The notes: generated from the letters alone by a model not told the origin. A DNA stretch of 54,580 bases from an uncultured Candidatus Peregrinibacteria bacterium (GCA_903847465.1 CAINDQ010000093.1:1-54580), one strand, 5' to 3'; shown: positions 630 to 53,758, numbered from the stretch's first letter. Numbers and translations are program-made.

Positions 630-838
630 AGGCCCTTCCTTTTTCAGTAATAAATACTGCAAAAATATTTGCGCTGTTTGTTCGGGACGGAAGAAGACCG
701 TTGACAAGAAAGGTATTACCTTCCGAGAAGGGGAGTTGTAGGTGTCTGGCTTGTTGCCGGATATCCGAAGGTTCTTGCGAACCGAATCCCGATCTTTGGA
801 AGTAGCGATAACGGGCATGAGCCCAGAAGGAGAGAGCG

Positions 839-1468: not shown

Positions 1469-1478
1469 GAGGATCGAG

Positions 1479-2747: not shown

Positions 2748-2797
2748 TCGCTGATGGGCCGTAACAGGAGGCTAAAGCCACGGACGCACCTTGGAAT

Positions 2798-2833
2798 AAG
2801 GGGGCGGCCGAGCTCGGCCGCCCCCTTATTTTG
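2798..2833 (+). terminator. rho-independent terminator
   Basis: AAGGGGGCGGCCG-AGCT-CGGCCGCCCCCTT forms a perfect 13-bp stem with a 4-nt loop, followed by ATTTT. It lies 50 nt after the stop at 2747. Confidence 0.85.
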
Positions 2834-2951
2834 AGATTTAGACTTACCTTTCTTGTCAACAAATCCAAACTCTTTACGAAGAGATTATTTTTTGTTATAT
2901 TTTTTAAAAGGCCAACGTACTAGAAGTGTTTGCGTAGAGATCACATAGCCA

Positions 2952-4112: not shown

Positions 4113-4270
4113 AATTTATTATCATTTGTAGTCGAATACGATATAGATAACGATCTTATTTTAACTTGAGTACTAGTTAAGAGTTTTATTTTTAATATTA
4201 CTTTTTCCCAAAAAGTCTGGTAGACTCCGTGTTAATATCAAAAAATATAAGCTTAACCTCTCAAGCTCTT

Positions 4271-9019: not shown

Positions 9020-9119
9020 AAGGGTTTGAAATCGTAGATTAAATGAAGACCCTTAGGAGGAATCTTAGGGGTTTTCTTTTGGGTGGTAAAACTCTCTAAA
9101 TAGGCCCGCTTTTTTGGCC

Positions 9120-9148
9120 TTGGAAAAAAGACGGTTTTGTGGTAAAAT
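9120..9148 (+). promoter_or_regulatory. promoter candidate, TTGGAA-17 nt-TAAAAT
   Basis: Hexamers lie at 9120-9125 and 9143-9148. They are followed by the leader GATAAATTTGAAATAAAAA, which is duplicated upstream of the next giant gene. Confidence 0.4.
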
Positions 9149-9182
9149 ATTGAGATAAATTTGAAATAAAAATAAACACGTC

Positions 9183-12100
9183 ATGAGGTTTCGAAATGTT
9201 GTTTCAAAAATAATTATTATTGCGCTTGTTTCAGTGATGGTTCCAACAGGAACTGTTCTAGCTGCAAATACGTGTGCTTCGACGGGAGTAAATGGCGATT
9301 GGAATACCGCTACAACATGGACCAATTGCGGTAGCACTGTGCCACAAGAAGGAGATGACGTTTCGATAGGTCATGCTGTTTCCATTGGCAATTACTCGAT
9401 TAATCGAGTTGCTAATATCACGATTGCAAGTGGAGGAACGCTGACTCAAAACAATACAAATACTCAGACGATTGCGGGGATTTTGACTATACAAAGTGGA
9501 GGAACGTTGACTCATGGAAATAACGCCGGAACGTTGGCTTACAAAGTTGATTTCAGCGCAGTGACTATTGATGTGCAAAATGGCGGTACAATCGATGTCA
9601 GTGGTTTAGGGTATGACGGTGGTGGTTCTGGGGCGAATGGTTCTGGACCAGGTGGAGGATTTAGTCCCGGTGGTTGTACGTATACTTACGGTGGTGGTGG
9701 TGCTCATGCCGGAAATGGTGGAGCGTCTAACGGAGCCGGTGGAACAGCATATGTTACTACTGCGGCACAAATTGGTACTGAATTAGGATCCGGTGGTGGT
9801 GGTGGTGATTGTAGGGCTGGTGGGGCCGCCGGTGGCGGCTTGGTAAAACTTACTGCTTCCGGAACGGTGACCGTCAATGGTTCAATTACGGCAAATGGCA
9901 ATAATGCTACTGGTGACAGTATGGGTGGAGGTGGTGGCGGTGCCGGTGGTTCAATTAGAATTACTGCATATACTGTAGCTGGCACTCCGACTGCGATGGA
10001 AGTAAAAGGAGGAACAAAAGGAACTGGTGGGGCGAATGGAGGAGGAGGTGGTGGTGGTGCTGTTTACATTGGCTATGAATACACTAGTTCTTCTAGCATT
10101 GTTCTCTCAAATATTTCTAAAGGTGGTGGTACCGGTGCCAATCCTGGTGGTGAAGGATTTTTTTGGTTAGAGCCGTTAAACGCTCCAGTTGGAGGGGCTC
10201 ACAATTGCGTTTCTGCTAATTCAAATACTGATTGGAATAATATTTTTACCTGGACTGGGTGTGGCGGAACTGTTCCACAAGTTGGTGATAATGTAACGAT
10301 TATTTCTCCTGTTAATATCGGCGCATATGTTATTAATCAAGTGGCGAATATTACAATCGGAAATGGCGGAACTCTTTCTCAAAACAATTTAAGTACTCAA
10401 ATTATTTCAGGAACATTAACTGTGCAAAATGGTGGAACTTTTACTCACGGAGACAATGCTGGAACGCTGGCTTACGAAATTGATTTTAGTGCGGCGACTA
10501 TTGATGTGCAAAGTGGAGGTGTAATAAATGCCGACGGAAAAGGATATGACGGTGGTGGTTCTGGTGTTGACGGCTCTGGACCAGGTGGAGGAATCCACCC
10601 CGGTGGTTGTACGTATACCTACGGTGGTGGTGGTGCTAATTTCGGGGATGGCGGAGCATCTAATGGGGCTGGAGGAACACATTATCTTCATACTTCTGCG
10701 GACATTGGTACTGACTTGGGATCTGGTGGTGGTGGTGGTGATTGTAGAGCTGGCGGTGCGAATGGTGGTGGAATAATAAAACTTAATGTTTCAGGAACTT
10801 TGACTATTACTGGTTCGATTACTGCCAATGGCAATAATGCTACCGGTGACAGCATGGGCGGTGGTGGTGGTGGTGGTGGTGGTGCCATTAGAATTAATGC
10901 TGACACAATTACCGGAACTCCGACTGCTTTGAAAGCTACAGGAGGAACAAAGGGCTCTGGCGGAGCCAACGGTGGTGGTGGTGGTGGTGGTGGAATTTAT
11001 ATTGGTTACAACACTACTAATTCTGTTTCCGCAGCTGGCGCTTATTTTTCTGTTGCGGGTGGAACTGGTGCTAATAATGGCGGTGCTGGTTTGCCTATTT
11101 TGGAAGAAACAGCTCCGACAAATACATGTATTTCGACTGGAACAAACAGCGACTGGAATACAGCTGCCGCATGGAGTCTTTGCAGTGGTGGCGTTCCACA
11201 AGTTGGAAACAATGTGAGAATTTCTCATGCTGTTGCCATAGGGAGTTATACGATTAATCAAGTTGCAAATATTACAATTCGAAACGGAGGAACTCTGACT
11301 CAAAACAATGCTTTGACTCAAACGATTTCCGGATCTTTGACTGTACAAAGTGGAGGAACTCTTACTCATGGAGATAACTCTACAACGCAAGCATTCAAAG
11401 TTGATTTCAGTGCGGCGAGTGTGGATGTACAGCTTGGAGGTGTAATAAGTGCCGATGGAAAAGGGTATGATGGAGGAACTAGTAATGTACATAACAATGG
11501 CTATGGCCCTGCTCCTGGTATAGGAAAAGATGGTAATGGATATCAGGCTGGTAGTGGTGGTGGACATGGTGGAAATGGTGGAACGACTACGGATGGAGAT
11601 GTTGGCGGCACAGCTAATGGAGACGTCACTAATCCGGCGACAATTGGTTCCGGCGGTGGTGCGGCTGGAGGTGGAGTTGGAGGTAGTGGCGGAGGGTTGA
11701 TTGTTTTAAATGCAACCGGAAGCGTTACTGTCGCTGGCACAATTACTGCGGATGGTACGAATGGAGGAAATGGTAGCAACTCAAGTGCTGGTGGTGGTGC
11801 TGGTGGTGGTATCAAAATTGTGGCAGATTCTATTTCTGGAACTCCAACAAGTTTTACCGCAACAGGAGGAACTAGTTATGGTGTTGTATATGCTAGCAGA
11901 AATGGAGGAGGTGGTGGTGGTGGTATTATTTATATTCAATACACAACAGGATCAAATACTTTTGACCCTACCGCTGGATATTTCAGTATGAAAGGCGGAA
12001 CTGGTGCCGGCGCTGGTGGTGCCGGAGTTACATATGTCAAAAAAGTAAGTGTTAGTGACGACTTGTATATTATCAACGGAGCTACGGTTGGGGCGGATTC

Positions 12101-28600: not shown

Positions 28601-31600
28601 ATGCTTGGGTTATTTTCGGCGGCTTTGGTTAGGGGAAATTCTGATACGGATGTAGATGTTACTTTGCTTGATTTCAGCGACAGTGATTTTCAAGATCAAG
28701 AAATGATCGATTTTTTCGAGACTGAAAGTTTGTGGTCAGTTGGTGGTGTTTCACCTATTTCTGCAACATTGGAAGCTCCGATTCTTCATCTTGTTTTTGA
28801 TCAACCTGTGAGTTCTGACTCTACACTGCTATGGGATTTGTCAGATCCATTTGAGGTTGAGGGAGTATATGCTGGAGCGGTGATTCAAGGAAGTGATGAT
28901 CATGAATTTATTATCAATTTGGATTGGGACGGTTGGGCTGGAAATCCTATTGGTATCCAGTTTAACTATGGAGTTATATCTCCAAATGGCGACTCGTCCG
29001 ATGTATTTATTGAGGTCGCAGAGCCGGGAACTTACACTGTGTATGTTCCTCACTTAGAAGGAGAAACAAATGTTTCAATTTCACTATTTTCACAATCTGA
29101 TCCTGGTCTTGATGGTCCTGATATCGTTTGGTTCTACGGAGAGTCTCCTGAGATTTCCGGGAGCGGACCTACTACTCTGAATTTTGACATGGATGATCCT
29201 AGTTATATGCTTGGGAGATTTTCGGCGGCTTTGGTTGAGGGAAATTCTGATACGAATGTAGATGTCACTTTGATTGATTTTAAGGAAGAAGACTTTCAGG
29301 ATCAGAGAATGATTGATTGGCTTGAAACTGAAAGTATATGGGCAGTTGATGGGGTTTCACCTATTTCTGCAGCATTGGAAGCTCCGATTATTCATCTTGT
29401 TTTTGCTCAACCCGTGAGTTCTGACTCTACACTGCTATGGGATTTGTCAGATCGATTTGAGATTGAGGGAGTATATGCAGGAGCGGTGATCCAAGGAAGC
29501 GATGCTCATGAATTTACTATTAATTTAGATTGGGAAGGATGGACTGGAGCTCCGATAACTATCGGATTTGCATATGGAAACGCTTCGGCGCCTGATGCAA
29601 AAGATCTGAATGGATTTATTGAGATTGCAGAGCCAGGAACATACACTATGTACGTTCCGCACGTAGAGGGTGAAACAAATATTACGATTCAGAGTGTTTC
29701 TTGGTCAAGTTTAGATCTCTTTAATGCAGATGAGTATGCGGATGTCGTTTGGTTTTACAATAGTGCCCCTGAAATTTCGGGCCCGGGACCAACAACGATA
29801 AATATGGACATGGATGTTCCTAGTTATATGATTGGAGTTATGTCGGCTGGATTGGTTGATGGAAATTCGGATGAAAACGTGGACGTTACTTTGCTCCTTT
29901 TTAGCGATGAGGATTTGCAAGATCAAGGTATGATAGATTTTTTTGAGACAGAAAGTTCATGGTTGGTTGATGATGTTTCGCCTGTGTCTGCAGTTTTGGA
30001 AGGAGACATTGTTCATTTGATTTTTGATCAGGCTGTGAATTCCGATTCCACCATTTTGCTAGATTTATCATCCTTGGTTGAAGCTCCGTTGTTTGCTGAA
30101 GCAGTGATTCAAGGAGATGGAAGCATTGCTTTTACCGATGCGAGTCTTGAAACATGTGTAAGAAGTGCTTTGGGTGGGGATTTCTGGGCGGATCAGGACA
30201 CTCCGATTACGGAGGATGACGCTTTGGACCTTACCATGCTTACTTGCGAGAGCGACTCTATTTCTGACCTAACCGGGTTGGAATATTTTACAAATTTAAC
30301 TTATTTAGATCTTCTTGATAATTCAATTAGCGACCTAAGTCCTTTGAGTGGATTGGATTCTTTAACTAATTTAAATCTTGGTTGGAATTCAATTAGCAAT
30401 ATTGGCCCTTTGAGCAATCTTGATTCTTTGGCCTATTTAACTATTCATGCCAACTCAATCAGCGACATCAGTCCTTTGAGCGGGATGACTGCTTTGGAAG
30501 GCCTATACATTGGCGCAAATTCTATTAGCGACATCAGTGTTTTGAGCGGATTAACTGCCTTGAGATATGCATATCTTTACAGCAATTCAATTAGCGATAT
30601 TGAACCTTTGGTTCAGAACGCTGGACTGACTGATGGAGACTCAATCTACTTGAGTGGAAATCCGTTGAGCGACGAATCTTTCACCTTTATTGCAACACTT
30701 ATGGAACGTGGCGTTAACGTTGATTATGATGTGCCAACTTGTACTTCGTTCACATATAGCGATTGGAGTACGTGTGTGGATAAAACAAAAACTAGAACCG
30801 TTTCGACTTCGAGTCCGGAAGGATGTACGGGAGGAACACCAGTTTTGGAAAGCACTTGTGGCGGGGGAGGACTTATTATTACTGATGTAGATCCTCCAGT
30901 GATTGATCCACCAATTGTTGATCCGCCAATTGTTATTCCGCCGATTGTTATTCCACCTGTCGTGGATCCACCTATTGTTATTCCACCTGTTGTTGATCCA
31001 CCAATCGTGATTCCACCTGTCGTTGATCCGCCAATTGTTGTTCCACCGGTCATTGATCCTCCGATTGTTGATCCACCAGTTGAACCGCCGGCTGTTATTG
31101 ATCCATCAATTGTTATTCCTCCTCCATCTCCATATATCCCAAATTTCACAGTCAACGATATCGTAGAAATATATCACAGCGGTTCTTATGGCAATATATT
31201 CTTGAAGTTGGTTGTTGATGACAAAAAGGATTGTTTGGGAGATAAAGCGATGAACTGTTTGGAGAAAATTTATGGAGTTACTCAATCTCAAGAAAGTGAA
31301 ATTGGTGATGCAGTTGTTTTTGGAAAACAACCTGGAGAAATTATCACGACACCTAGACTCGTAAACCTAAAAGGAATCGTTGGAAGCAATCCGGTGATTC
31401 TGGCGGTATCCGCGCCGAATGACAAACTTTTTGTGAGGATTAATACCGTTCCAATGATGACCATTCAAGGTTATTCCGACGCAGAGGGAAAAGCTGTTAT
31501 GGGCTTAACACAGCCACTAAGGAGTGGTGATTATTCTGCCGAAATATATGCTGTCCGAAAAGGTGTGGCAGTACTTGGGAACAAAACAAATTTCACGGTT

Positions 31601-32902: not shown

Positions 32903-33948
32903 ACGAAGGTCGCGTGCAATGCACATGTTGTCAGAGATATTGTATTGTCGAAAAAGGGCGAAGGGGTTTTTGTGGTGTGAGAAAAAATATTGATGGAGAA
33001 TTATTCCTGAGCGTGCATGGAAAAGCGATTGCGGTAAACACAGATCCTGTTGAGAAAAAACCGCTGTATCATTTTCTTCCTGGAAGCAAAATATTTTCTT
33101 TTGGGACTTTGGGATGTAATTTTCGCTGTGCGTTTTGTCAGAATTGGAACATCTCCCAAGCGCCCGCAATGACAAAAGAAAAATACGGAAAGGGCGATGA
33201 AGGGGAAATCAGAATTGCTCAATTACTCGAAGATGGTCGTGAACTTTCTCCAAAACAAATCGTTGATTATTGCCTGAAGAATGAGATCCCTGCGATTGCC
33301 TACACTTACAATGAGCCAACAATTTTTTCTGAATATGCACATGACACTGGAGTGCTCGCGCGAAAAAATGGAATCAAAAATGTTTACGTTAGCAATGGTT
33401 ATGAATCGAAAGAATGTTTGAAATATATGAAAGAATTTTGTGATGCAATAAATATCGACATCAAGTCTTTCAACGAAGATTTTTACATGAACACTTGTGG
33501 CTGGGTGAAACTTGCCGGCATCAAAGAAACCATCAAAAGAAGCCGCGAAATTGGCTTCTGGCTCGAGTGCACGACGTTGGTTATTCCTGAAGAAAACGAT
33601 AGCGATGAAGAACTAAAATCAATCGCGAAATTTCTCGCAAAAATTTCCAAAGATATTCCGTGGCACGTGACTGCGTTCCATCCTGATTACAAAATGACAG
33701 ACAAAAAAGCCACTCCTGTTTCGACATTATTACGCGCATGGAAAATCGGCAAAGAGGCGGGATTGAAATACGTATATATTGGGAACGTTGGCGGCACAAA
33801 TCATGGCGATACTTTATGTCCAAAATGTGATAAAGTTTTGATCGAAAGGGGATATATGGATTGCCGAAAAAACGAGATAGTGGTGGGGAAAAGAGGGGAT
33901 GGAAAGTGCCCAGAATGTGGGACAAAAATTGCGGGAGTGTGGAAATAA
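32872..33948 (+). CDS. amrS: AmmeMemoRadiSam system radical SAM enzyme
   Basis: N-terminal Cys cluster VQCTCCQRYCIVEKGRRGFCGVR. Radical-SAM CxxxCxxC motif GCNFRCAFCQNW. C-terminal CPKC...CPEC. It overlaps the lgt 3' end by 31 nt. Confidence 0.85.
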   Translation: MQKATLFKKLDEGRVQCTCCQRYCIVEKGRRGFCGVRKNIDGELFLSVHGKAIAVNTDPVEKKPLYHFLPGSKIFSFGTLGCNFRCAFCQNWNISQAPAMTKEKYGKGDEGEIRIAQLLEDGRELSPKQIVDYCLKNEIPAIAYTYNEPTIFSEYAHDTGVLARKNGIKNVYVSNGYESKECLKYMKEFCDAINIDIKSFNEDFYMNTCGWVKLAGIKETIKRSREIGFWLECTTLVIPEENDSDEELKSIAKFLAKISKDIPWHVTAFHPDYKMTDKKATPVSTLLRAWKIGKEAGLKYVYIGNVGGTNHGDTLCPKCDKVLIERGYMDCRKNEIVVGKRGDGKCPECGTKIAGVWK

Positions 33949-33970
33949 TTTTCCGATTTTTTTACTTTTT
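33947..33970. repeat. AT-rich intergenic element, copy B (24-nt core)
   Basis: AATTTTCCGATTTTTTTACTTTTT is identical to the cores at 395-418 and 41795-41818. It starts inside the amrS stop codon and ends 12 nt before the next ATG. Confidence 0.85.
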
Positions 33971-40034: not shown

Positions 40035-40243
40035 GAGAAAGCGCTAAGCATTGACAAAACGAGGCTTATCTTGTAGGGTAGAGCCTCTTTTGAGTCTATG
40101 ATTGGCATCATCAACGCGATCGATGCTCGTCTCTCGAAAGACGATCATTGACTTGCGTTGTGTTTTAAATAGTTTTCTTTGGAATTCTAAGGTGATCCTT
40201 TCTGGAGACAGAGAGGTGTCAAAATAGGTCCGAGGGGGGTTGA

Positions 40244-40369
40244 ATGATGGACGTTCGCGAAACTTTTGCGGCCACCATCTACTTGCTCACGTTCTTCTTC
40301 GTTGTTGGAATCGTCGTCGGAGTAGTCCAGGCGATCCGCAAGGAAAAGAAGAAAAAGAAGGGGGTTTAG
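40244..40369 (+). CDS. mini single-pass membrane protein (41 aa) with a poly-Lys tail
   Basis: MMDVRETFAATIYLLTFFFVVGIVVGVVQAIRKEKKKKKGV. GAGGGGGG lies 5 nt upstream. It is below the ORF-track cutoff and was translated by hand. Confidence 0.5.
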   Translation: MMDVRETFAATIYLLTFFFVVGIVVGVVQAIRKEKKKKKGV

Positions 40370-40375
40370 AAGATC

Positions 40376-40567
40376 ATGACCGGTCAGTTGACAAAGCCGT
40401 TCATCGGATTGGATCCCGTGACTGGAATGATTGTCTTGGTGGTAGCAGTGACTTTGCTTCTGCTCGCAGCACTCGGCCTCGCAAAGGCCATGTTCTGCAG
40501 CGCGAAGTCGATCGCGCCACCACAAGCGACCAGTCCTGATTCCGATCCACGCGAACCCGATGGCTGA
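40376..40567 (+). CDS. mini single-pass membrane protein (63 aa)
   Basis: TM helix GMIVLVVAVTLLLLAALGL. AAGGGGG lies ~12 nt upstream. GC3-rich. The stop TGA lies inside repeat copy 2. Confidence 0.55.
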   Translation: MTGQLTKPFIGLDPVTGMIVLVVAVTLLLLAALGLAKAMFCSAKSIAPPQATSPDSDPREPDG

Positions 40568-40627
40568 TCCTCTTCTGGAAATGAAGGGGTGTCAAATTGG
40601 CTACACTTTTGCACGGAGAGACACGTA

Positions 40628-40834
40628 ATGGCCGAAGAAGCCACCACTACGACAATCTCGTTCCTTGAGCGAGTGAACAACGGGGAAGGGCCTGCAACAG
40701 TCACGCTCGTCCTGCTCGTCGTCCTCGCCGTCATCACCTTCATGATCATCGCGATTCGCATGGTCGGGCCGAAAAAGCCGATCAGCGAAACCGCTCAGGC
40801 CGGCGAAACCGATCCGACCCGCACCAAGGGCTGA
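40628..40834 (+). CDS. mini single-pass membrane protein (68 aa from ATG 40628; ORF open from GTG 40589)
   Basis: TM helix VTLVLLVVLAVITFMIIAI. GGAGAG lies 8 nt upstream of ATG 40628. The stop TGA lies inside repeat copy 3. Confidence 0.55.
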   Translation: MAEEATTTTISFLERVNNGEGPATVTLVLLVVLAVITFMIIAIRMVGPKKPISETAQAGETDPTRTKG

Positions 40835-40866
40835 TCCTTTCTGGAAACGAAGGAGGGCCTATCGTC

Positions 40867-41019
40867 ATGAATGAATTTTCGGAATTCGCGAACGGAGTGA
40901 CGACAGTCGTACTGATTGTCCTTGCCGTCGCCCCTACCCTCGGACTGATCGCTTACGGGCTCTGGTCGAGAAAGCCAGATCCCCAAACGATCAACGATTC
41001 TAGACGGATCGCCAGCTAA
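40867..41019 (+). CDS. mini single-pass membrane protein (50 aa)
   Basis: MNEFSEFANGVTTVVLIVLAVAPTLGLIAYGLWSRKPDPQTINDSRRIAS. GAAGGAGGG lies 9 nt upstream. Translated by hand. Confidence 0.5.
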   Translation: MNEFSEFANGVTTVVLIVLAVAPTLGLIAYGLWSRKPDPQTINDSRRIAS

Positions 41020-41109
41020 AGCGATCTTACCTGAACCAAGGGCTGATCCTCTTCTGAGAATGAAGGGGTGTCTCGTCGGGAAAAGTTTTCTGAATGAGGG
41101 GGTTTCCGG

Positions 41110-41445
41110 ATGGACTTTCTGGCCTTGCACTACAGGACCGTAATCGTCGTCAGCGTCGTGGTCATCGTGCTGCTCGTCATCTTCGTTCCGCTGGCGGTTC
41201 ACTGCTTCGGCAAGAAGAAGCCGGCGGAACCGATCGAGTGGCACCCGGACGAGCGCATGCGCGAGCGCGGCACGACGGCTCAATCCGCTTCGGAACAATC
41301 CTCGCGCCCTCCGCGACATACCGCCCTGATCCTGCGTGATCGTGGCGGCCACAGATGCTGCAGCGGCGGTGACGTTCACCCCTGCGGCGGCAAATGCGCC
41401 TGCCAGAAGGGTCCCGGCAACATGCCGGACCACATCGATGCCTGA
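41110..41445 (+). CDS. single-pass membrane protein (111 aa) with a Cys/His-rich C-terminal tail
   Basis: TM helix TVIVVSVVVIVLLVIFVPLAV. Tail HRCCSGGDVHPCGGKCACQKGPGNMPDH. GAGGGGG lies 8 nt upstream. Confidence 0.55.
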   Translation: MDFLALHYRTVIVVSVVVIVLLVIFVPLAVHCFGKKKPAEPIEWHPDERMRERGTTAQSASEQSSRPPRHTALILRDRGGHRCCSGGDVHPCGGKCACQKGPGNMPDHIDA

Positions 41446-41497
41446 CAAGATGGTCTTGGCGGACCAAACCTCGAAAGAGTGAAAGCTGAGTAGCGTC

Positions 41498-41596
41498 ATG
41501 ACGACCCTCTACATCATCACTTTCGTTGCGGTCTTCGTTGCGATCAACTACGGCTTCATCTGCGCCAGAAGGATCTGCGCGACGGTCAAGAAGTAG
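41498..41596 (+). CDS. mini hydrophobic peptide (32 aa)
   Basis: MTTLYIITFVAVFVAINYGFICARRICATVKK. The SD is weak. It is the last ORF before the terminal hairpins. Translated by hand. Confidence 0.35.
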   Translation: MTTLYIITFVAVFVAINYGFICARRICATVKK

Positions 41597-41628
41597 CGCC
41601 CAAACCCATTCCGCCAAGACATTCGAGG

Positions 41629-41696
41629 CGAGGGGACGGGGCGCACGCGTGCGCCCCGCCCCTCGAGCCCTTGAAGTAGTTCTCAAAAACTACTTC
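41629..41696 (+). terminator. two consecutive stable hairpins at the end of island 2 (terminator candidate, no U-tract)
   Basis: CGAGGGG(A)CGGGGCGCA-CGCG-TGCGCCCCG-CCCCTCG spans 41629-41665 and contains a 20-nt perfect palindrome. GAAGTAGTT-ctcaaa-AACTACTTC follows at 41673-41696. Confidence 0.5.
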
Positions 41697-41794
41697 TCCA
41701 AAAGAAAGCCTTCTAATTTCACAACGCAAGTCTTACTCTTTTTTCACTTCACCAAGGCGGGTGGAGGTTATTTTGGCGATTCGTAAAATTTTCA

Positions 41795-41818
41795 AATTTT
41801 CCGATTTTTTTACTTTTT
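41795..41818. repeat. AT-rich intergenic element, copy C
   Basis: AATTTTCCGATTTTTTTACTTTTT is exact. A partial duplicate, GTAAAATTTTC, precedes it at 41783-41793. It lies 127 nt upstream of the korA-like start. Confidence 0.85.
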
Positions 41819-41906
41819 TACCAACCGCGAAACGAGAACCCTGGACATTCCCGAGGAGAAAAAGAAAGACACGCTTCCGCTTTGGCGTAGGTAGATTTAG
41901 ACTTAT

Positions 41907-41935
41907 TTGCGGTTGAGCTTTGGAATTGCTAGAAT
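41907..41935 (+). promoter_or_regulatory. promoter candidate, TTGCGG-17 nt-TAGAAT
   Basis: Hexamers lie at 41907-41912 and 41930-41935, 10 nt upstream of the ATG at 41945 (short or no leader). Confidence 0.3.
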
Positions 41936-41944
41936 GGACACACG

Positions 41945-44564: not shown

Positions 44565-44593
44565 TTGACGTTTTGGCTGTTTTGTGCCAGAAT
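44565..44593 (+). promoter_or_regulatory. promoter candidate, TTGACG-17 nt-CAGAAT
   Basis: Hexamers lie at 44565-44570 and 44588-44593, immediately after the beta-subunit stop. The first ATG of the giant ORFan is at 44618. Confidence 0.3.
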
Positions 44594-44617
44594 CTACCGC
44601 CTATTATCTATTTTGGT

Positions 44618-47600
44618 ATGGGCAGGTTTGGGCATACAGAATCAGAAGAAAAATTTTCCGCGTATGATTTTCGCGATCTTGACGACTCTGTGGATAATTC
44701 CATGGAATCTGAGTTGTCTGCCAATTACAAAGATGACCATTGGAGGCTTGTAGAAGATCATGGAAATAGCGAAAAACTGCAAAAATTCCCTTTGGATTGG
44801 GGAAAGTATGGATTGGCTTTTTTTCGTGCACTCGAGATGCCTTCTTCAATTGGCCAAAATATGTTTATGGCGGTTTGTCTCCGCTATATGAAATTCAGGC
44901 CCACTCTACTCCGAGACAAGCTACGCGAAGCCGATATTCCGAGAGATGTTGTTAGTCCTTTCATAGATTATCTTTATGGAAATCTTGCAAGGTTGGAGGA
45001 ACTTTTTGACGAATACGGTCAATTAACGATGGTTGATAAATATTTTCGGACTGAGCATGATTCGAAAAGAAGACTCTCAAAAATAATTATTCCGGAAAAC
45101 GTAAAAGATTTTTATGATTTTCGGGCGTGGTATGACTCAAATCACCGTAGTCGTCGGGTGGATGCGCCATGTGGAGCAAAATTTAACGCCTATCTTGATA
45201 TCGCATTTCAGGAAAATTTGGCGGCGCTAGACGATACCTCCAGTGGTAAATCGGAAGAAGAAAGAGAGGCGGACTTCTATCAAGCAGAGGAGCGTTTGCA
45301 TCGATTGCAAATAAAAAATCAATGTCAAACATCTACTGCTGGAGCGGAATGGGGCGCAAATAGAGCTCATGCACCTTTGGCAGACCATATCGCCGAGTAT
45401 TTAAATTGGCATAGTCATGCAAATTTCAAATTTGAGGATTACGAGTGGAATGACCTTAGCAATGAATTTCGAGAAATCAGGCCGACCAATTATACGCTTG
45501 AAGAAAATATGTTGAACGGAGCGGTGCATCACGATAAAACTTTACATATTTTGACTCCTTTCGAAAATGGGCGCGAAGCCTATATGAGAGATTATGCTTA
45601 CGAAAGACATTTTGAAGAGCGTAGATATAAATTTCGCAGAGAGGACATGGAGAAAATGACGGCAAGATTCTTGGGCGGATTAGACACTACTTGCGTTCAA
45701 AGACCGGGAGGTTTTGTAAATGACGAAGATGGTTCTTTGCAAGTTAGATTTGGAATTCATCGCAACGCCAGACCTGACGAGATAACTATCGCTAAGGGTT
45801 GTTATCTCTTTGATGAAACAGCTGAAGTGCCTATGGAAGGCAGCATTCCTTGGAGAGCGATGTATCCAAAACCTGAGTTTTATACTGAATGCCTCGGTCC
45901 TCATTTCGTAACAGACACGACTTCTGATCCTTTTGAGTGGGCACTAAAAAGATGCAAGGTTGCGGCTGGATATGCCACTTCTTTAGGCATTGGCAGAGAC
46001 TATCCCCTCGGTCATTTCCAGCAACAGTTTATGAAAATGGCGAATATTGTTTGTAACGCTACTCCTGAGGAAACAACTGTGCCGAGAGTGTTTCATATGA
46101 CGGATGAAAAAAAGGCTCTTTTGAGAAAAGCGCAGGAAGTTTTGGGAGAGGCTTATTGTCCTGAAACAGCTTGGTTGATTTTGGAAAATGAGGATATTGT
46201 TGGCGAAGAAAGTTTGCAAGATCCAGAGTTTTTGGAATTGCTTGGAAAGATTCCGGCATGTCTAGAAAAAGGATTGGTAATGGATCGTTTGCAAGAATTT
46301 TATGAGGCGAATTCAAAACATGATCTGGATCCTCTTGAGGCGCTAAAATTTGCGATGAAAATTGTGGCGGATATTTATACTTCGGGAGAAGAACCTTGGT
46401 GGTTCAAAGAAAATTTTGATATTTCCGAAGTCTTTGATGCTAAAGGTGATGAATGTGTGATAACCGACGGAACTCTTCAAGTTGGCTACTGTGAAGAAGG
46501 CCGATCACTTGTTGCGGATGTTGCCCATGAAGCCGGATTTGGTTTTACTTATGCGATGGATTTGTATAAGAAGGCTGGGCATAAATTGGTCGCAGTTCAG
46601 GGTTTAAATTCTAAAGAAGCTTTTGGGTTTTCGTGCGAAATTGCTAAAAAATATGGCATTGGGAATTTACAAAGAGCAACAAGCATAGTTGAATTTGCAA
46701 TCCATCATGTCAACGAAGTTGCCTCCAACAAAAGGCCTGAATCTTTTGAATTGTTTAAAGAATTTGCAAAACTAAGTGCTCCTTATTCAACCATTGTTAG
46801 CGCAATGGAGGGCGGAGAAACAACCTTGAGCATCCCTGGATTTTCCGGACTAATGCTGACATGCGTGGGAGAAGAACGCATGAAAGAACTCAAAATGGAT
46901 GATGAAGTAATCACTCCGGCGATTCTAAAAGAGGTTGCCGTTCCCTTGTCTGTTCCTCTTCGAGAAAGAGCAAGATTAATTCCTGGAGTATTGAAACATC
47001 GCCTATTCCAATCTGAACAAAAAAAATTATTAGCGGCCAGCGCCGACGCCGGAAGGCTCATGTTGCCAATGCCAAAAGATCAATCTTTGGAAGTGAGCGA
47101 TGGTGGTTCTGAAAACCCTTTTGAGACTCCTTCCAATTCCATCTTCTCCTTTTTCAAACAAGTAAAAACTGAGTGTGGGTGCCTGAATGATAAAATAATT
47201 CGCATTTATTTTGCGCTGTACGCCACTAAATTTCCAAACCCTTTTAGGCCACCAAAAGGATTTTTGACTTTCCTCCAAAAATTTCAAAACGTGCCAAATC
47301 CTCAGGCGCAGAAAGCAATGAATGATCGGCTTTTTGGGACCAATCCATTTAGCCATAATGCTGGAGGGCTCAGAAGGGCGGCGGGAGAAAGAGAAGCGAA
47401 AGCTTCGATTAATCGCGATCTGATTATTTCAAATATTTTGGATGCCCAAATCATGGGGCTTTTGACATGGGCAGAAGTGGAGGGAATATTTGAGTGGATG
47501 GTTGGCGATTTGTCTCCAGAAAAAATTGCCGAATTGGAGTTGGAATCGAGAGAAGAAACAAAGGAAGGAGAGAAGTGGAGAAAAAAACGCCTTCGAGAAA

Positions 47601-50053
47601 GAAAACGCGAACGACGTGAATGGGCAAAGAAAGAAGCAGCCGGAACTCTTACTTGGGAAGAAAAAGATAGACGACGTCGCGACGATAGAGATGACAGCGA
47701 TTTGGCCGCCCTGACGCCTGAGCAAATCGAAGCTCGTATTGCCGAAAAGGTTCATGAGAAAGCTAGGGATGCTTCCGGACAAATACACCTAAAGCGTATC
47801 TTGATTGCCGAGGACGGCATCGACTTTATTGCGGCAGTAAATATTTTGGTAGTTTTGAAATTGGTGACTCCGGAAGACTTTAGACAGCTGGTTTCCGAAC
47901 ACTTGAGAATGATGCCTGTGATGGAAGAATATTATCCCCTCCTTACTCATGAAGATGCCGTTTTTCCACTTTTAAACAAAGATGTTTTCAAAGAAACCAT
48001 AGAAATATTAAAAACTTTATCCGAGTGGGGAGTGATTGATTTTGATGCTTTTAGGGCGGGCGTCGCCTCAGAATCTCCTCTTGAGCAAAAGTATTCTTTG
48101 TTAAGAGAATTTTTCTTTTGCGTGGGAGCTTATCGAAGAAGCCAGGCCGTAATCGAAGAATACAAAGATGAAATGCATTCCAATATGAGACGCTTATCTC
48201 ATGCAAAAAACTCTAGACGAGGCGGATATATGTATGACAGCTATGGATACCCTGATATGTCGAAAGTTGTCGAAGAAGGCTCGGATATAGTTTTGCGAAT
48301 GGAGGTGGCTTTGCAAAAAACTTGGGGCTTAACTCCTTTGATTGCTCGAACCGTTATGGAAAAAATGGTGACGGAAACTATCGCCACTTTGTTTACTAAA
48401 GAAGATTATCCGGAAGTGTACGAATCTATGGCAAAACTTGGTGAATTGGGCGTATACGACGTTGACACTTTTGCTGCGGCTTTTAGTGAACAGACCCCTG
48501 CAACAACCAGATATCGTTTACTTCAACAGATCTTTTTGTGCGCAGGCGCATACGTGAGAACAAATGAAAGAATCAAAGATTTCGATCGAGAATTTTATAG
48601 AAAATCTTTACCTGCTCCTCAGCGATTCGGTCATGATGAAGAACAGCCCAATGCTTCGGCGCCACCAGCACCAGAGCCAACTCTGGGAGAAAGAGAATTC
48701 AAGCTTTTTGCTGAATTGGAGCGCGACGTAAGACAATATTGGCAAGGAATTAGTTGTGTCTCTCCCGGCACCGCAAATATCTTTTTGCAAGACTCCTTAA
48801 ATTCAGCAAAATATTTTAGCATTTTTCGAATTGTGCATGACACCAAAATTGGTGCTCAAAACGCACAAAATCCCGAGGAAGCTGAGGGCGAAACCACAGA
48901 TTCTAAAGAACACGCCAGCTTGAGAAGAAACGTTCAAGCTTTAAGCACCGCTTCTTTCCGAACAATGTCTTCTCTTTTTGCGGCACGCATGTTGAAAGTT
49001 GGTCAGGAATTGGAGGCTCCCGAGAGCAGAGCTCAAGCCCTTCTGACTGATGGCCAAATATTAGAAGTGCCAGTGGTAAGTAATGAAATCGAGCTACATC
49101 GCTTTCAAGAATATGACGAGAAAAGTGTCGAAACTCTCGTCGCCGATAATGAAGATCGAATAACTTCCAGCCTCAAAATGTATCGCAAAGATTGTTTGGG
49201 GTATGTGTCTATTGGTGGAAAACTGCATGTATCAAATTGGAATCCTGAAAGATTACAGGCTTTAAAAGATTTGATGGGACTTTCTTCTACTCAATTTCAT
49301 TTGCAATACATGGATGATGTTTTGCTTTTGCCGGCTTCTTTGAGTGGCTCGGAATTAAAAGCATTTATTCTTATGTTGGTGAAAGCTGGTATCGTTACCC
49401 CTGACAATCTGCAATTACAGGTTGGTATTCCGGGAAGGCTTTCTCCGGAAAATGCGGCCTATTTGGGAAGTGCTGTTTTACTCTCGACAGAAAAAGGATT
49501 CCGTTATTCAGAGGACTCTTTTTGCACAAATCAGGACCACGCAACTGGAGCAAGACTAATGCTTTATGACGCAAATGGACCTAGCACAAAATTACCTTTC
49601 ATGACCGAGCTGATTGGCAGAACCGATATGCTTGGTCGAATGCATTTGAATGATATTGATTTGTATCAATTGATTGGAACGGCTTTGGTCCATGCACAAT
49701 TTGGAGGTCCGTTTGAAAATTTTGGAAAAGAATACAAGCAACGCTACGAAGCAATTTTGAAAAAGCATGGAAATGGACTAGAAAGTGTTCTTAAAGAAAA
49801 ATGGATTTATAAGCAAAATGATGATCGCAAAGATGACGGAGCGAGTAAAAGCCATCACGAAACTGTGAAAAAAGTTACGGATGCATATTTTGATTGTGCG
49901 GATAAGTCTGACCAAACAGGAGTTCAAGAAGGAATTATTTTTGAAGTGAGAGCATTGAATGATTGGCTAAAAGAATCGATCAAGGGAGTTCAAGAAAAGC
50001 TATACCACGATAAATCGACTTGTAAAGAAGCCGACTTAGCGGTAAATTTTTAA
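44618..50053 (+). CDS. giant cytoplasmic ORFan (1811 aa from ATG 44618; 1826 aa if TTG 44573)
   Basis: 5.4-kb uninterrupted ORF with native low-GC composition. No signal peptide or TM. A Lys/Arg/Glu-rich coiled segment lies at ~47540-47700. There is an internal ~55-aa duplication at ~48008-48175 versus ~48428-48600. I recognise no catalytic motif. Confidence 0.85.
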   Translation: MGRFGHTESEEKFSAYDFRDLDDSVDNSMESELSANYKDDHWRLVEDHGNSEKLQKFPLDWGKYGLAFFRALEMPSSIGQNMFMAVCLRYMKFRPTLLRDKLREADIPRDVVSPFIDYLYGNLARLEELFDEYGQLTMVDKYFRTEHDSKRRLSKIIIPENVKDFYDFRAWYDSNHRSRRVDAPCGAKFNAYLDIAFQENLAALDDTSSGKSEEEREADFYQAEERLHRLQIKNQCQTSTAGAEWGANRAHAPLADHIAEYLNWHSHANFKFEDYEWNDLSNEFREIRPTNYTLEENMLNGAVHHDKTLHILTPFENGREAYMRDYAYERHFEERRYKFRREDMEKMTARFLGGLDTTCVQRPGGFVNDEDGSLQVRFGIHRNARPDEITIAKGCYLFDETAEVPMEGSIPWRAMYPKPEFYTECLGPHFVTDTTSDPFEWALKRCKVAAGYATSLGIGRDYPLGHFQQQFMKMANIVCNATPEETTVPRVFHMTDEKKALLRKAQEVLGEAYCPETAWLILENEDIVGEESLQDPEFLELLGKIPACLEKGLVMDRLQEFYEANSKHDLDPLEALKFAMKIVADIYTSGEEPWWFKENFDISEVFDAKGDECVITDGTLQVGYCEEGRSLVADVAHEAGFGFTYAMDLYKKAGHKLVAVQGLNSKEAFGFSCEIAKKYGIGNLQRATSIVEFAIHHVNEVASNKRPESFELFKEFAKLSAPYSTIVSAMEGGETTLSIPGFSGLMLTCVGEERMKELKMDDEVITPAILKEVAVPLSVPLRERARLIPGVLKHRLFQSEQKKLLAASADAGRLMLPMPKDQSLEVSDGGSENPFETPSNSIFSFFKQVKTECGCLNDKIIRIYFALYATKFPNPFRPPKGFLTFLQKFQNVPNPQAQKAMNDRLFGTNPFSHNAGGLRRAAGEREAKASINRDLIISNILDAQIMGLLTWAEVEGIFEWMVGDLSPEKIAELELESREETKEGEKWRKKRLRERKRERREWAKKEAAGTLTWEEKDRRRRDDRDDSDLAALTPEQIEARIAEKVHEKARDASGQIHLKRILIAEDGIDFIAAVNILVVLKLVTPEDFRQLVSEHLRMMPVMEEYYPLLTHEDAVFPLLNKDVFKETIEILKTLSEWGVIDFDAFRAGVASESPLEQKYSLLREFFFCVGAYRRSQAVIEEYKDEMHSNMRRLSHAKNSRRGGYMYDSYGYPDMSKVVEEGSDIVLRMEVALQKTWGLTPLIARTVMEKMVTETIATLFTKEDYPEVYESMAKLGELGVYDVDTFAAAFSEQTPATTRYRLLQQIFLCAGAYVRTNERIKDFDREFYRKSLPAPQRFGHDEEQPNASAPPAPEPTLGEREFKLFAELERDVRQYWQGISCVSPGTANIFLQDSLNSAKYFSIFRIVHDTKIGAQNAQNPEEAEGETTDSKEHASLRRNVQALSTASFRTMSSLFAARMLKVGQELEAPESRAQALLTDGQILEVPVVSNEIELHRFQEYDEKSVETLVADNEDRITSSLKMYRKDCLGYVSIGGKLHVSNWNPERLQALKDLMGLSSTQFHLQYMDDVLLLPASLSGSELKAFILMLVKAGIVTPDNLQLQVGIPGRLSPENAAYLGSAVLLSTEKGFRYSEDSFCTNQDHATGARLMLYDANGPSTKLPFMTELIGRTDMLGRMHLNDIDLYQLIGTALVHAQFGGPFENFGKEYKQRYEAILKKHGNGLESVLKEKWIYKQNDDRKDDGASKSHHETVKKVTDAYFDCADKSDQTGVQEGIIFEVRALNDWLKESIKGVQEKLYHDKSTCKEADLAVNF

Positions 50054-50071
50054 CAACCTAATCCAATATCT

Positions 50072-51595
50072 ATGTGCCAAATAGACGCTAGAAGAGTGGT
50101 AGTAACTGAAGAAAAGCGTGTGCCAAAAACAAGCCCTGTGGCAATAAAGGCTGGAGAAGATCCTGCAGTGCTGAAGTCGGTTGTTACAAATGTAAAAGGA
50201 ACTGACGCTCAAGTAAAAAAAGCCTTGGGTTCTGTGGGTTCTGGTAAAGGTGGTCAACGCAAATTGGGAGTTACAGGAACTGCTTCTGTTCCAGCTTCAA
50301 AACCTGCGGGAAAAAATACTGACGAAGTGGTTGGCGGCGGAGATGAGGAATGGTTTGACCGAGTATCTGTTGACGAAATGGTTGGTGGGGGAGATGAACC
50401 TGCTCCAGCGGTGCCAGCAATCGAAGCTGCTACGCCTGTTAACGAAACATTAACGGCGGAATTGGCTGCTTTAGACGCGCGATTCCGAGCTTTGCCTCAT
50501 GGAGCGATTAAAGATGGCGCTTTTGCTTTAGGGAAAACTGCTTCTACAGCTGCTCAACTTTCAATTGGTATAAATGCCGTAGGGAAGTTGGCCAAAGATA
50601 GACTGAATAATGTTTTTGTTGAAGGAGTTGATTTCGAGGCTCTTGTAAAGGAAGCTTCCGAGATTACACATCTTTGCGATACTGTGGGAGAAATGGGAAT
50701 TCCAATTATGCTCTATGATGCATGTGACAATTATAAAAATTTGGCGCCATTGAGAAAGGCCAATCCTTATACATTTTTGGAGCAGGCTGTTCTTCTTCTT
50801 GATAGAATTGAGCAAGCTTGCGAAATCATCCCTCGGATAAAAGAAAGACTTGCTAAACTAACAACTGATCTTCAAGACGCAACACGTCGCGTTCATGCAG
50901 CGATTGCCGCAAAGGAATTGGCTGATAAAAGACCTGCCGAAAGCGATTCTCGATGTGCCGCTTTACCAAAGGCCTCGGCACCAGCATCAACGTCACCTGC
51001 ACCTGCACCTGCGCCAGCTCCCGCTCCTGCCATAGATCCAAATGACAGAGCCGCCGTAGAGAGAGCGCGCCAAGCTGCTCAAAAGGCAGCTCAAGAAGAA
51101 GGAAGATTGGCCGCCCTCGAAAGAAGAGCGGCAATAAAAGCCGGCTTACCAGTCCCGGGAACTACTGCTGCTCAAAGACCTTCTGCTCCTCAGCAACCTT
51201 CTGCCCCTTCCCAACGACCGGCAACAGCTCCTCAAGGACGAGAAGCCAGAGGAATTGCTCCAGGCACAGAAAGAATAGCGGAGGAAGTAAGACATGCAAT
51301 TATCGCTTTGTTGATCGCTCAAGATAATCAATATATCGGAGCCGACTTCGTCAAAGGAATCGTTTGTAACAAAATCAGATATCAATTAAATAGAGTTTTA
51401 CCTCCTCAGGCAAAGCTTCAGCTAGAAAGAATGGATAGTGGTAGAAGAGGTCCTGAAGTTCACGCTTACGTGACGGCGACTTACACGGCTTTACAGAGAG
51501 TGTTTGGGGACAGCATTGAGCCTGTTCCAGGATGGATGAAAGATCCGACAACCTCGGGCGGAGGAGATCGCCGAGGTGGAAGCGGAAGATGGTAG
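50072..51595 (+). CDS. hypothetical 507-aa protein with Pro/Ala-rich linkers
   Basis: The ORF starts 18 nt after the giant ORFan. (PA)n tract SPAPAPAPAPAPA at ~50990-51030. QRPSAPQQPSAPSQRP. Gly/Arg-rich C-terminus GGGDRRGGSGRW. I recognise no family. Confidence 0.75.
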   Translation: MCQIDARRVVVTEEKRVPKTSPVAIKAGEDPAVLKSVVTNVKGTDAQVKKALGSVGSGKGGQRKLGVTGTASVPASKPAGKNTDEVVGGGDEEWFDRVSVDEMVGGGDEPAPAVPAIEAATPVNETLTAELAALDARFRALPHGAIKDGAFALGKTASTAAQLSIGINAVGKLAKDRLNNVFVEGVDFEALVKEASEITHLCDTVGEMGIPIMLYDACDNYKNLAPLRKANPYTFLEQAVLLLDRIEQACEIIPRIKERLAKLTTDLQDATRRVHAAIAAKELADKRPAESDSRCAALPKASAPASTSPAPAPAPAPAPAIDPNDRAAVERARQAAQKAAQEEGRLAALERRAAIKAGLPVPGTTAAQRPSAPQQPSAPSQRPATAPQGREARGIAPGTERIAEEVRHAIIALLIAQDNQYIGADFVKGIVCNKIRYQLNRVLPPQAKLQLERMDSGRRGPEVHAYVTATYTALQRVFGDSIEPVPGWMKDPTTSGGGDRRGGSGRW

Positions 51596-53727: not shown

Positions 53728-53758
53728 GTAAAAAAATCGGAAAATTTTACTTTTTTAC
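53728..53758. repeat. AT-rich intergenic element, copy D (inverted orientation)
   Basis: The plus strand reads GTAAAAAAATCGGAAAATTTTACTTTTTTAC. Its reverse complement is 31/31 identical to 388-418. It lies 41 nt upstream of the carB start. Confidence 0.9.

Follow-up and report, generated by a model that had tools for sequence, protein, structure and literature searches.

The phage moron, exemplified by the gene 15 element of HK97, carries its own promoter and terminator, deviates in GC content and often encodes small inner-membrane proteins, gp15 of HK97 being one (Cumby, Davidson and Maxwell 2012, PMC3594210). RNA-unfolding translational coupling has in turn been described for the coat-lysis junction of MS2 and for genes VII-IX of f1 (PMC12548453). 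Features of both systems meet in a stretch of 54,580 nucleotides (nt) from an uncultured Candidatus Peregrinibacteria bacterium (GCA_903847465.1, CAINDQ010000093.1:1-54580), hereafter called the window, in which a GC-rich island of six short plus-strand open reading frames (ORFs), named island 2, separates a PduO-type adenosyltransferase gene from an OFOR-alpha gene. On balance, we lean towards reading island 2 as a laterally acquired, moron-like and probably phage-derived polycistronic cassette of small membrane proteins. An earlier note on this DNA held that no described system has this layout; that statement is too strong, as both the moron architecture and the RNA-unfolding hairpin find a match here.

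Island 2 resembles the phage moron in being extra DNA between genes that are adjacent in relatives, in a GC content unlike that of its neighbours, in its small membrane-protein cargo and in its promoter-like and terminator-like signals, which here consist of a weak -10 element and a hairpin without a U-tract. It differs from the moron in holding six paralogous genes instead of one, in its inverted-repeat (IR) bracket, and in cargo that is without homologues. The interval that contains island 2 is the following:

40035 to 41944, 1,910 nt: spacer from the end of the PduO-type adenosyltransferase gene (40034) to the start of the OFOR-alpha gene (41945), both genes assigned by Pfam

In relatives, represented by four metagenomic loci (among L009/L012, L010 and L011) with 65-71% identity to the window in OFOR-alpha and 47-68% in PduO, the distance from the PduO stop to the OFOR start is about 20-30 nt, against 1,910 nt here; about 1.9 kb, including AT-rich flanks, is therefore an insertion specific to the window lineage. 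The final ~20 nt upstream of the OFOR ATG are still recognisable in the window when compared with the relatives. The core of island 2 (40193-41664; 1,472 nt, six plus-strand ORFs) has a GC content of 0.570, compared with 0.42-0.43 in the 5 kb on either side and 0.419 in the remaining window. The outer parts of the spacer (40035-40192 and 41665-41944) are host-like, with a GC content of 0.41-0.42, and the GC steps are sharp at both edges. The GC jump reported in the earlier note is thus real, although the background of about 35% given there is too low.

Such sharp steps at both edges are what speaks for an assembly chimera of a high-GC and a low-GC organism. We nevertheless regard a chimeric join, a concern raised by the earlier note, as practically excluded, because five independent assemblies, derived from different samples by different assemblers, carry both junctions in identical form (JGI 3300045718, JGI 3300045671, ENA ERZ27313541, ENA ERZ27313539 and Logan ERR4222573). 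The island-bearing contigs, which all come from one population, are at least 99.96% identical to one another. A chimera is also opposed by the presence of a second island of the same dialect 37 kb away (island 1) and of homologous islands in other genomes.

The six ORFs of island 2, all on the plus strand, are:

40244 to 40369, plus strand: ORF1, 41 amino acids (aa); one transmembrane (TM) helix followed by KEKKKKKGV; Shine-Dalgarno (SD) motif GAGGGGGG
40376 to 40567, plus strand: ORF2, 63 aa; one TM helix and a Pro/Asp-rich tail; in the frame common to ORF1 and ORF3
40628 to 40834, plus strand: ORF3, 68 aa; one TM helix; SD motif GGAGAG
40867 to 41019, plus strand: ORF4, 50 aa; one TM helix; a truncated paralogue of ORF3
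41110 to 41445, plus strand: ORF5, 111 aa; N-terminal TM helix, KKKP, then the Cys-rich tail HRCCSGGDVHPCGGKCAC
41498 to 41596, plus strand: ORF6, 32 aa; one TM helix followed by ARRICATVKK; GC content at the third codon position (GC3) 0.88

They are present exactly as the earlier note had claimed, with the predominance of G/C-ending codons (GC3 0.61-0.88 in all six), the single hydrophobic segment (6/6; Kyte-Doolittle 19-residue maximum, KD19, 2.2-3.4) and the SD motif on most of them that it had described. Most show the order GC3 > GC1 > GC2, as do the genes of island 1, and in a sliding frame plot the codon phase of highest GC tracks the six ORFs, including the frame switch at ORF4 and ORF5. 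All six start with ATG, preceded in five by a G-rich SD 5-10 nt upstream. The hydrophobic segment is followed by K/R residues, a layout that predicts bitopic proteins of N-out/C-in topology. Five of the six are small hydrophobic peptides of 32-68 aa, in which basic residues flank the single TM helix. A second 41-aa ORF with a TTG start lies in the AT-rich leader (40102-40227); it has a GC3 of 0.45 and does not belong to the island genes.

ORF1, ORF2 and ORF3 stand in one frame, divided by lone stops (TAG at 40367 and TGA at 40565), and ORF4 and ORF5 are also matched in frame; read-through of these stops would yield fused multi-helix proteins. The sharing of frames may be no more than a consequence of the unit lengths, 372 and 267 nt, which are both divisible by three.

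The longest ORF of island 2 lies on the opposite strand (40795-41499, minus, 234 aa), so that the real gene could be there, with the plus-strand mini-ORFs as its shadows. Gene callers give this some backing, as the full 234-aa ORF is called in one assembly and an inner 111-aa minus-strand ORF in two others. Its composition points the other way: GC1 (0.66) exceeds GC3 (0.61), as is characteristic of an antisense frame, most plus-strand ORFs are more island-like than it is in their synonymous codons, and its acidic runs DDEQHDDHDADDD lie exactly opposite the plus-strand helices. It is without a hydrophobic or TM segment and has no Pfam or PHROG match. The minus-strand ORF looks like an antisense artefact of the plus-strand genes, and we hold it very improbable that it is the gene that matters.

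None of the six peptides gave a significant match in Pfam, PHROGs, NCBIfam or PADLOC. The only holin PHROG matches concern ORF1 and are not significant (E = 0.05-0.1); with regard to the features of a holin/lysis cassette, island 2 is without a nearby lysin gene and without significant homology to holin families. In a word-indexed search of 5.8 billion clusters ORF5 and ORF3 match only themselves, and ORF2, ORF3, ORF4 and ORF6 are singleton clusters. An exhaustive phmmer search of ORF5 against 1.84 billion representatives returned ORF5 itself and one repeat protein of 6084 aa, which was rejected as a homologue: each of its repeats matches at 25% identity and 27 bits, and the E value of 2e-16 is the sum over the repeats. 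Scans of IMG/VR with ORF5 and ORF3 found no relatives, tblastn with the six peptides gave no match in all 650 kb of fetched loci, and a comparison of island-2 DNA with phage and plasmid collections gave none either. The peptides searched are thus orphans. As to what they do, we can only suggest, with low confidence and by analogy with the cargo of phage morons, fast-evolving accessory membrane peptides, for example in superinfection exclusion or envelope modulation.

The link between island 2 and the world of phages runs through its companion, GC island 1, whose GC content is 0.556 (about 730-2830):

700 to 2860, plus strand: GC island 1, with an IR bracket, two SD-led genes and a terminator hairpin
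839 to 1468 and 1479 to 2747, plus strand: the two island-1 genes, each SD-led
2795 to 2830, plus strand: terminator hairpin of island 1

In relative synonymous codon usage, the island-2 ORFs correlate with island 1 (r = 0.71) and not with 14 host genes (r = -0.29). SD-like motifs precede seven of the eight island genes, that is both island-1 genes and five of the six island-2 ORFs, where they are strong (GTAGGAGGA, GAAGGAGGG, GAGGGGGG), against 0-2 of 16 host genes (Fisher p = 7e-4); no host gene has a clear SD and two at most have a weak 4-mer. The same contrast is seen in two other genomes that carry an island-1 homologue, with an SD in 0/14 host and 2/3 island genes of L015, and in 0/4 host and 2/2 island genes of L062 (p = 3e-7 when pooled with the window). 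The window host's own genes thus essentially lack SD motifs, and host and island genes use different initiation signals within one genome. A foreign origin of island 2, as suspected by the earlier note, is borne out by the deviant GC and codons, by the SD contrast and by the adjacency of PduO and OFOR-alpha in relatives.

The proteins of island 1 match phrog_1383 ("virion structural protein", E = 8.6e-24) and phrog_2087 (E = 1.2e-49). In large phages, the corresponding genes are adjacent and in the same order as in island 1 in Tenacibaculum phage PTm1, while the 595-kb huge-phage record LR756511.1 has both, separated by about 1.6 kb in which other ORFs lie. For the 422-aa island-1 protein alone, tblastn also finds matches in Lak phages and in Bacillus phage G. 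Its AlphaFold model (pLDDT 85) places TM helices on either side of a beta-rich region and an alpha/beta domain, for which Foldseek finds TPM domains, e.g. Psb32 and AtTLP18.3, with a probability of 0.9-0.99. The large phages that carry the gene pair hold no counterpart of island 2. Named homologues of the island-1 proteins come from CPR/Patescibacteria metagenome-assembled genomes.

The island-1 gene pair behaves differently in phages and in cellular genomes. In 28 IMG/VR phage contigs the GC content of the homologue equals that of the phage (difference -0.04 to +0.05), and 3-4 further phage-like contigs show no GC elevation of it, whereas in five of five cellular contexts (the window, L015, L017, L059 and L062) the pair lies 8-15 GC points above its surroundings; elevation is thus found in 5/5 cellular and 0/~32 phage contexts. 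The four cellular loci outside the window are:

9287 to 11335 of L015: island-1-type locus
7300 to 12000 of L017: island-1-type locus
7400 to 13300 of L059: island-1-type locus
5448 to 7229 of L062: island-1-type locus

L017 and L059 carry the island at the same chromosomal position, with flanking proteins that are 77-80% identical and island proteins that are 51-67% identical; this island has been inherited vertically and is still GC-rich. Two ideas on how island 1 was inserted were abandoned: the 3' end of a tRNA-Asp proposed as integration site is not repeated, and the 7-bp target duplication TTACCTT at the island edges is not reproduced in L015. In L015 a GC-rich 47-aa ORF (8926-9149; GC3 0.92) with its own terminator hairpin lies just 5' of the island-1 homologue; its Trp-rich hydrophobic C-terminal segment remains below the KD19 threshold of 1.6 and so was not called as a TM helix. 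The find hints that genes for small hydrophobic peptides travel with the island-1 gene pool.

The genes of island 2 are connected by a direct repeat of about 30 nt, which was found in four copies at 40193, 40565, 40832 and 41044, as the earlier note had listed them (chance expectation of the pattern in the window 0.01), with the TGA of copies 2 and 3 serving as stop codon of ORF2 and ORF3:

40193 to 40221, plus strand: repeat and hairpin copy 1, in the leader 5' of ORF1; -14.7 kcal/mol, z -3.6
40565 to 40594, plus strand: copy 2, TGA is the stop of ORF2; -12.5 kcal/mol, z -2.5
40832 to 40860, plus strand: copy 3, TGA is the stop of ORF3; -13.4 kcal/mol, z -1.2
41044 to 41073, plus strand: copy 4; -14.0 kcal/mol, z -1.35

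RNAfold predicts a hairpin in all four copies (-12.5 to -14.7 kcal/mol). The folding claimed by the earlier note therefore stands for each copy, while the predicted stem (UGAUCCUCUUC ... GAAGGGG.GUCA) is longer than it had described, which places the UGA stop within the 5' arm. This arm is anti-SD-like (CCUCUUC or CCUUUC) and starts with the upstream stop, and the 3' arm is SD-like. Neither Rfam (at the gathering threshold and at E <= 1, island 2) nor a pattern search of IMG/VR gave a match, and two single matches of the pattern in GTDB genomes were ignored as chance (about two by our own estimate). Three other interpretations of the repeat were dropped. Small ORFs opening inside the hairpin (MKGC..., copies 2 and 4) lack their ATG in copies 1 and 3. 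An integron cassette with attC sites does not fit a repeat of only ~30 nt that has no GTTRRRY core sites, and the ORFs scanned yielded no integrase domain. A likeness to the leaders of island 1 and L015 (CCTTCC..AAGGGGAGTTGTAG) is weak, is missing in L062 and did not turn up in a pattern search.

Copies 2-4 stay similar for about 40 nt further upstream, within the final codons of ORF2, ORF3 and ORF4; therefore the repeat unit comprises the 3' coding end, the stop and the intergenic junction, and the direct repeat is the duplicated junction of paralogous genes and not an independent element. Together with a weak protein alignment of ORF2-5 (pairwise E about 1e-3), this upholds the duplicated cassette of mini membrane proteins proposed earlier. 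The start-to-start unit lengths are 372, 267 and 212 nt. The gene set is thereby shown to have formed by tandem duplication and divergence of a unit made of junction hairpin, SD, mini-ORF and stop. The segment behind ORF4 aligns with 40799-40838 over 40 nt at 83% identity:

41020 to 41046, plus strand: decayed C-terminal tail of ORF4, with stops TAA 41017 and TGA 41032 and the old stop TGA 41044

This tail reads ...A S (TAA) S D L T (TGA) T K G (TGA), and its first two stops align with GAA and CGC of the ORF3 tail. Because the sequence after the TAA aligns with the tail of ORF3, ORF4 is a paralogue of ORF3 whose tail has gained two stops, and the cassette appears to be partly decaying already.

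Decay could also be the whole story, with island 2 as inserted foreign DNA that is now drifting and six ORFs that are functionless remnants or, in a variant of this view, pieces of one polytopic membrane-protein pseudogene. Orphan status of every tested peptide, the two in-frame stops in the ORF4 tail, a nonsense polymorphism in ORF1 in one population, the single stops that divide ORF1-3 in one frame together with the frame match of ORF4 and ORF5, and the disagreement of gene callers among assemblies all fit this explanation. Against it stand the strong GC3 periodicity in all six frames, the ATG of each ORF with a well-spaced SD in five of them, and the intact layout of helix and K/R residues in 6/6; moreover, the repeat shows the stops of ORF2 and ORF3 to be ancestral to the unit and not recent breaks, and the cluster search and phmmer found no homologue of a longer parent protein. 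We consider plain decay unlikely.

For expression of the moron-like cassette, the following signals were identified around the core:

40051 to 40079, plus strand: putative sigma-70-type promoter, TTGACA (40051-40056), 17 nt, TAGGGT (40074-40079); read by eye
41630 to 41664, plus strand: terminator-like GC-rich hairpin, -37 kcal/mol, z -4.8
41673 to 41696, plus strand: second 3' hairpin, GAAGTAGTT / AACTACTTC, -10.1 kcal/mol, z -5.1

The promoter-like site upstream of island 1 (TTGACA-17-TATATT, 601-629), which it resembles, is the better of the two, and both contain TTGACAAAA...GGCTTAT. In island 2 the host-type promoter (~40051-40079) and an AT-rich leader of 160 nt would drive a single polycistronic mRNA, which would carry the six bitopic membrane-protein genes and end at the GC-rich hairpins (41630-41696). 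A consensus scan of both strands (40190-41700) found no promoter-like site inside island 2, which we take as support for the operon layout.

Within this mRNA, each junction hairpin would pair the anti-SD-like 5' arm, including the upstream stop, with the SD-like 3' arm. Since the stop lies in the arm paired to the SD-like sequence, a ribosome that terminates at the UGA would occupy the 5' arm and leave the 3' arm exposed, in the manner of RNA-unfolding coupling. The ORF3→ORF4 junction resembles the described cases in that the 5' arm holds the upstream stop and the 3' arm serves as SD for the next gene: here the 3' arm of copy 3 (GAAGGAGG) is the SD of ORF4, 9-10 nt before its ATG. At copies 2 and 4 the downstream start lies 35-45 nt beyond the hairpin, behind an SD of its own. 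The ORF before copy 4 now ends 25 nt ahead of the hairpin, and copy 1 is without an island ORF upstream. Because the geometry is right only at ORF3→ORF4, translational coupling is plausible at this one junction, and the hairpin-gated coupling of the earlier note survives there and not at copies 1, 2 and 4. Island 2 further departs from RNA-unfolding coupling in its other stop-to-start distances (60-90 nt) and in a host that seems to make no use of SD motifs in its own genes. The hairpins of the remaining junctions would be duplication relics or stems for stabilising or processing the mRNA.

Both islands are bracketed by inverted repeats:

40150 to 40182, plus strand: left arm of the island-2 bracket, GACTTGCGTTGTG perfect, with an imperfect extension ending TTTTCTTTGG; in the AT-rich leader
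41698 to 41732, plus strand: right arm of the island-2 bracket, CCAAAAGAAAG ... CACAACGCAAGTC
700 to 715 and 2845 to 2860: island-1 bracket, perfect 16-mer, GTTGACAAGAAAGGTA / TACCTTTCTTGTCAAC

The island-2 bracket is perfect over 13 nt (40150-40162 / 41720-41732) and extends imperfectly to ~35 nt. That of island 1, which is unrelated to it in sequence, is kept in L015 as ATTGACAGGAAAGGCACA / TGTGCCTTTCCTGCCTAT (9287-9304 / 11318-11335), where two positions differ from the window, each change in one arm being matched in the other. Leaders of homologous cassettes carry the motif TTGACA(A/G)GAAAGG(C/T)A; in L062 it is found in the leader as TTGACAAGAAAGGCA with its complement ~30 nt upstream (about 5300-5365), and in L017 and L059 no clear bracket signal rises above background. 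By our own estimate, brackets with arms within 150 nt of the island edges would arise by chance with a probability of ~3e-4 for island 2 and 5e-6 for island 1; 13-mer inverted repeats number 8 pairs in the window, with ~4 expected. The brackets may act in mRNA end pairing, in inversion or as operators. That of island 2 (13-35 nt) may pair the 5' leader of the transcript with its 3' trailer: the predicted leader-trailer duplex has -34.6 kcal/mol and the cofold is 15-17 kcal/mol better than the separate folds. When the leader is folded alone, the left arm pairs locally and a pyrimidine tract pairs with the SD region of ORF1. Two further repeats were observed in the window, namely a third perfect 16-nt IR (AAAATTTATTATCATT, 4111-4126 / 5693-5708; ~0.06 expected in the window) that spans the start of a 1596-aa gene, and a 13-mer (AGATTTAGACTTA) downstream of both islands (2834-2846 and 41893-41905), of which two copies occurred in 1 of 100 shuffles.

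Hairpins and end pairing together bring to mind type I toxins, and Ldr/Rdl and Ibs/Sib are tandem type I toxin-antitoxin (TA) loci. Island 2 could accordingly be an array of toxic peptides whose mRNA is silenced by SD-sequestering hairpins and by pairing of its ends. It shares with these loci the tandem, directly repeated genes for hydrophobic peptides below 70 aa (32-68 aa here) with one TM helix and charged tails, the predicted anti-SD/SD hairpins at the junctions and a possible 5'-3' pairing of the mRNA, to which the predicted leader-trailer duplex and the pairing of the pyrimidine tract with the ORF1 SD region within the leader would contribute. Silencing by 5'-3' end pairing is documented for type I toxins (hok/Sok, aapA/IsoA; PMC6733600). 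Island 2 differs from tandem type I TA loci in its polycistronic, single-operon arrangement, without a promoter-like site for an antisense RNA gene or for single units as far as the consensus scan of 40190-41700 goes, and in the lack of any sequence relationship to known toxins (Pfam, NCBIfam and PADLOC). ORF5, with 111 aa, also does not suit such an array, and island 1, with proteins of ordinary size, has the same kind of bracket. We therefore judge a toxin array to be quite unlikely.

The brackets may be viewed in another way, as recombination sites of an invertible, phase-variable cassette, the inversion of which would uncouple the genes from an outside promoter. Short perfect IRs that flank a segment downstream of an external promoter are typical of Hin/Gin-type invertible segments and invertons. 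Island 2 agrees with these in the short perfect IRs around a segment of 1.5-2 kb and in the external promoter. Both islands have perfect IRs (13 nt plus extension, and 16 nt) with promoter-like sites outside the left arms, and in L015 the changes in the two arms of the island-1 bracket match. After inversion, the junctions of island 2 would read GACTTGCGTTGTG+AAATTAGAAGGC, and GACTTGCGTTGTGAAATTAGAAGGC and its partner, whereas one orientation only is seen in all contigs of the five assemblies. The scope of the Pfam scans was 16 large ORFs of the window, leaving out the 4139-aa ORF and several smaller ones; no recombinase domain, and thus no invertase gene, was found among them. The two brackets have unrelated sequences, in L062 the nearby partner arm in the leader fits a local hairpin, and a 13-mer IR is not rare across the window. 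Inversion is accordingly improbable in our view.

Several observations weigh against the moron-like cassette itself. Unlike a phage moron, island 2 sits in a cellular chromosome with no surrounding prophage genes; the genes around it are cellular (Lgt, radical SAM, Memo, AMMECR1, PduO, OFOR, QueG and DHH), and the Pfam scans of window ORFs found no phage structural, integrase or lysis genes nearby. As no homologue of the searched peptides was found, the proposed phage origin depends on the dialect common with island 1 and not on homology. The putative promoter has a weak -10 (TAGGGT) and is not called by the consensus scan, and neither 3' hairpin (41630-41664, 41673-41696) leads into a U-tract. 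The coupling geometry fits one of four repeat copies (ORF3→ORF4 only), the hairpins of copies 3 and 4 have modest z-scores, and the masking of an SD would have little effect if host ribosomes ignore such motifs. The compensatory stem changes described in the earlier note did not hold up: in a common-register alignment of the four paralogous copies of this one genome, none of 11 pairs differs in both of its bases, and the covariation score does not exceed that of shuffles. Pairing is retained in 86% of alignment cells, compared with 50-73% in slid controls, and arises from conservation, G-U changes and a one-base register shift. Weak constraint is suggested by the two stops in the ORF4 tail, by gene calls that differ between assemblies and by the sole variant over 2.8 kb of one population (40349 A>T, locus L002), which turns a Lys codon of ORF1 from AAG to TAG and cuts the product of 41 aa to 35 aa, with loss of the KKKKGV tail.

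Some features of the window lie outside both islands. A host intergenic motif, (GTAAAA...)AATTTTCCGATTTTTTTAC, occurs at 400-423, 33947-33970 and 41795-41818 (plus strand) and at 53728-53758 (minus strand), with a 19-nt core that is invariant in the four copies, all of them intergenic, and with TTTTTTAC repeats at ~383-460; it is perhaps a regulatory site, perhaps a small repeat element. Two giant ORFs of 3439 aa and 4139 aa (9183-32026) contain long internal repeat arrays with 63/66-nt units, Gly-rich GGT arrays and 15-nt Pro/Val arrays (18201-18467 and 30869-31120), and the GGT and Pro/Val arrays are the cause of local GC peaks in them. FN3 and G8 domains occur in the 3439-aa ORF, and SLH and Calx-beta domains in the 1596-aa ORF upstream. 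The interval from OFOR-beta to QueG (44573-51595) holds two extra genes (1826 aa and 507 aa) without Pfam domains, where the relative L009 has only a 126-aa ORF; the window thus shows a further lineage-specific insertion.

A more far-reaching idea is that islands 1 and 2 represent an undescribed class of long-lived, compositionally insulated, IR-bracketed cassettes of membrane-protein genes of phage derivation, which would stay high in GC and SD-led over long vertical descent in SD-lacking Patescibacteria-like genomes, with brackets that gate the expression of small, potentially toxic membrane peptides through mRNA end pairing or inversion. We put it forward tentatively and regard it as rather unlikely in this full form.

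On its own, island 2 is an orphan accessory cassette and modest news, which illustrates the birth and loss of small membrane proteins by tandem duplication. The wider pattern, in which SD-lacking genomes hold small islands with another initiation signal and another GC content, raises the question of how such hosts translate SD-led foreign genes, whether selection, biased gene conversion or repeated replacement by phages has kept the GC from drifting towards that of the host, and whether the IR bracket controls expression. It is therefore the GC-rich, SD-led, repeat-bracketed cassettes, more than island 2 itself, that deserve follow-up, and at least one type of island has kept its foreign dialect through speciation.

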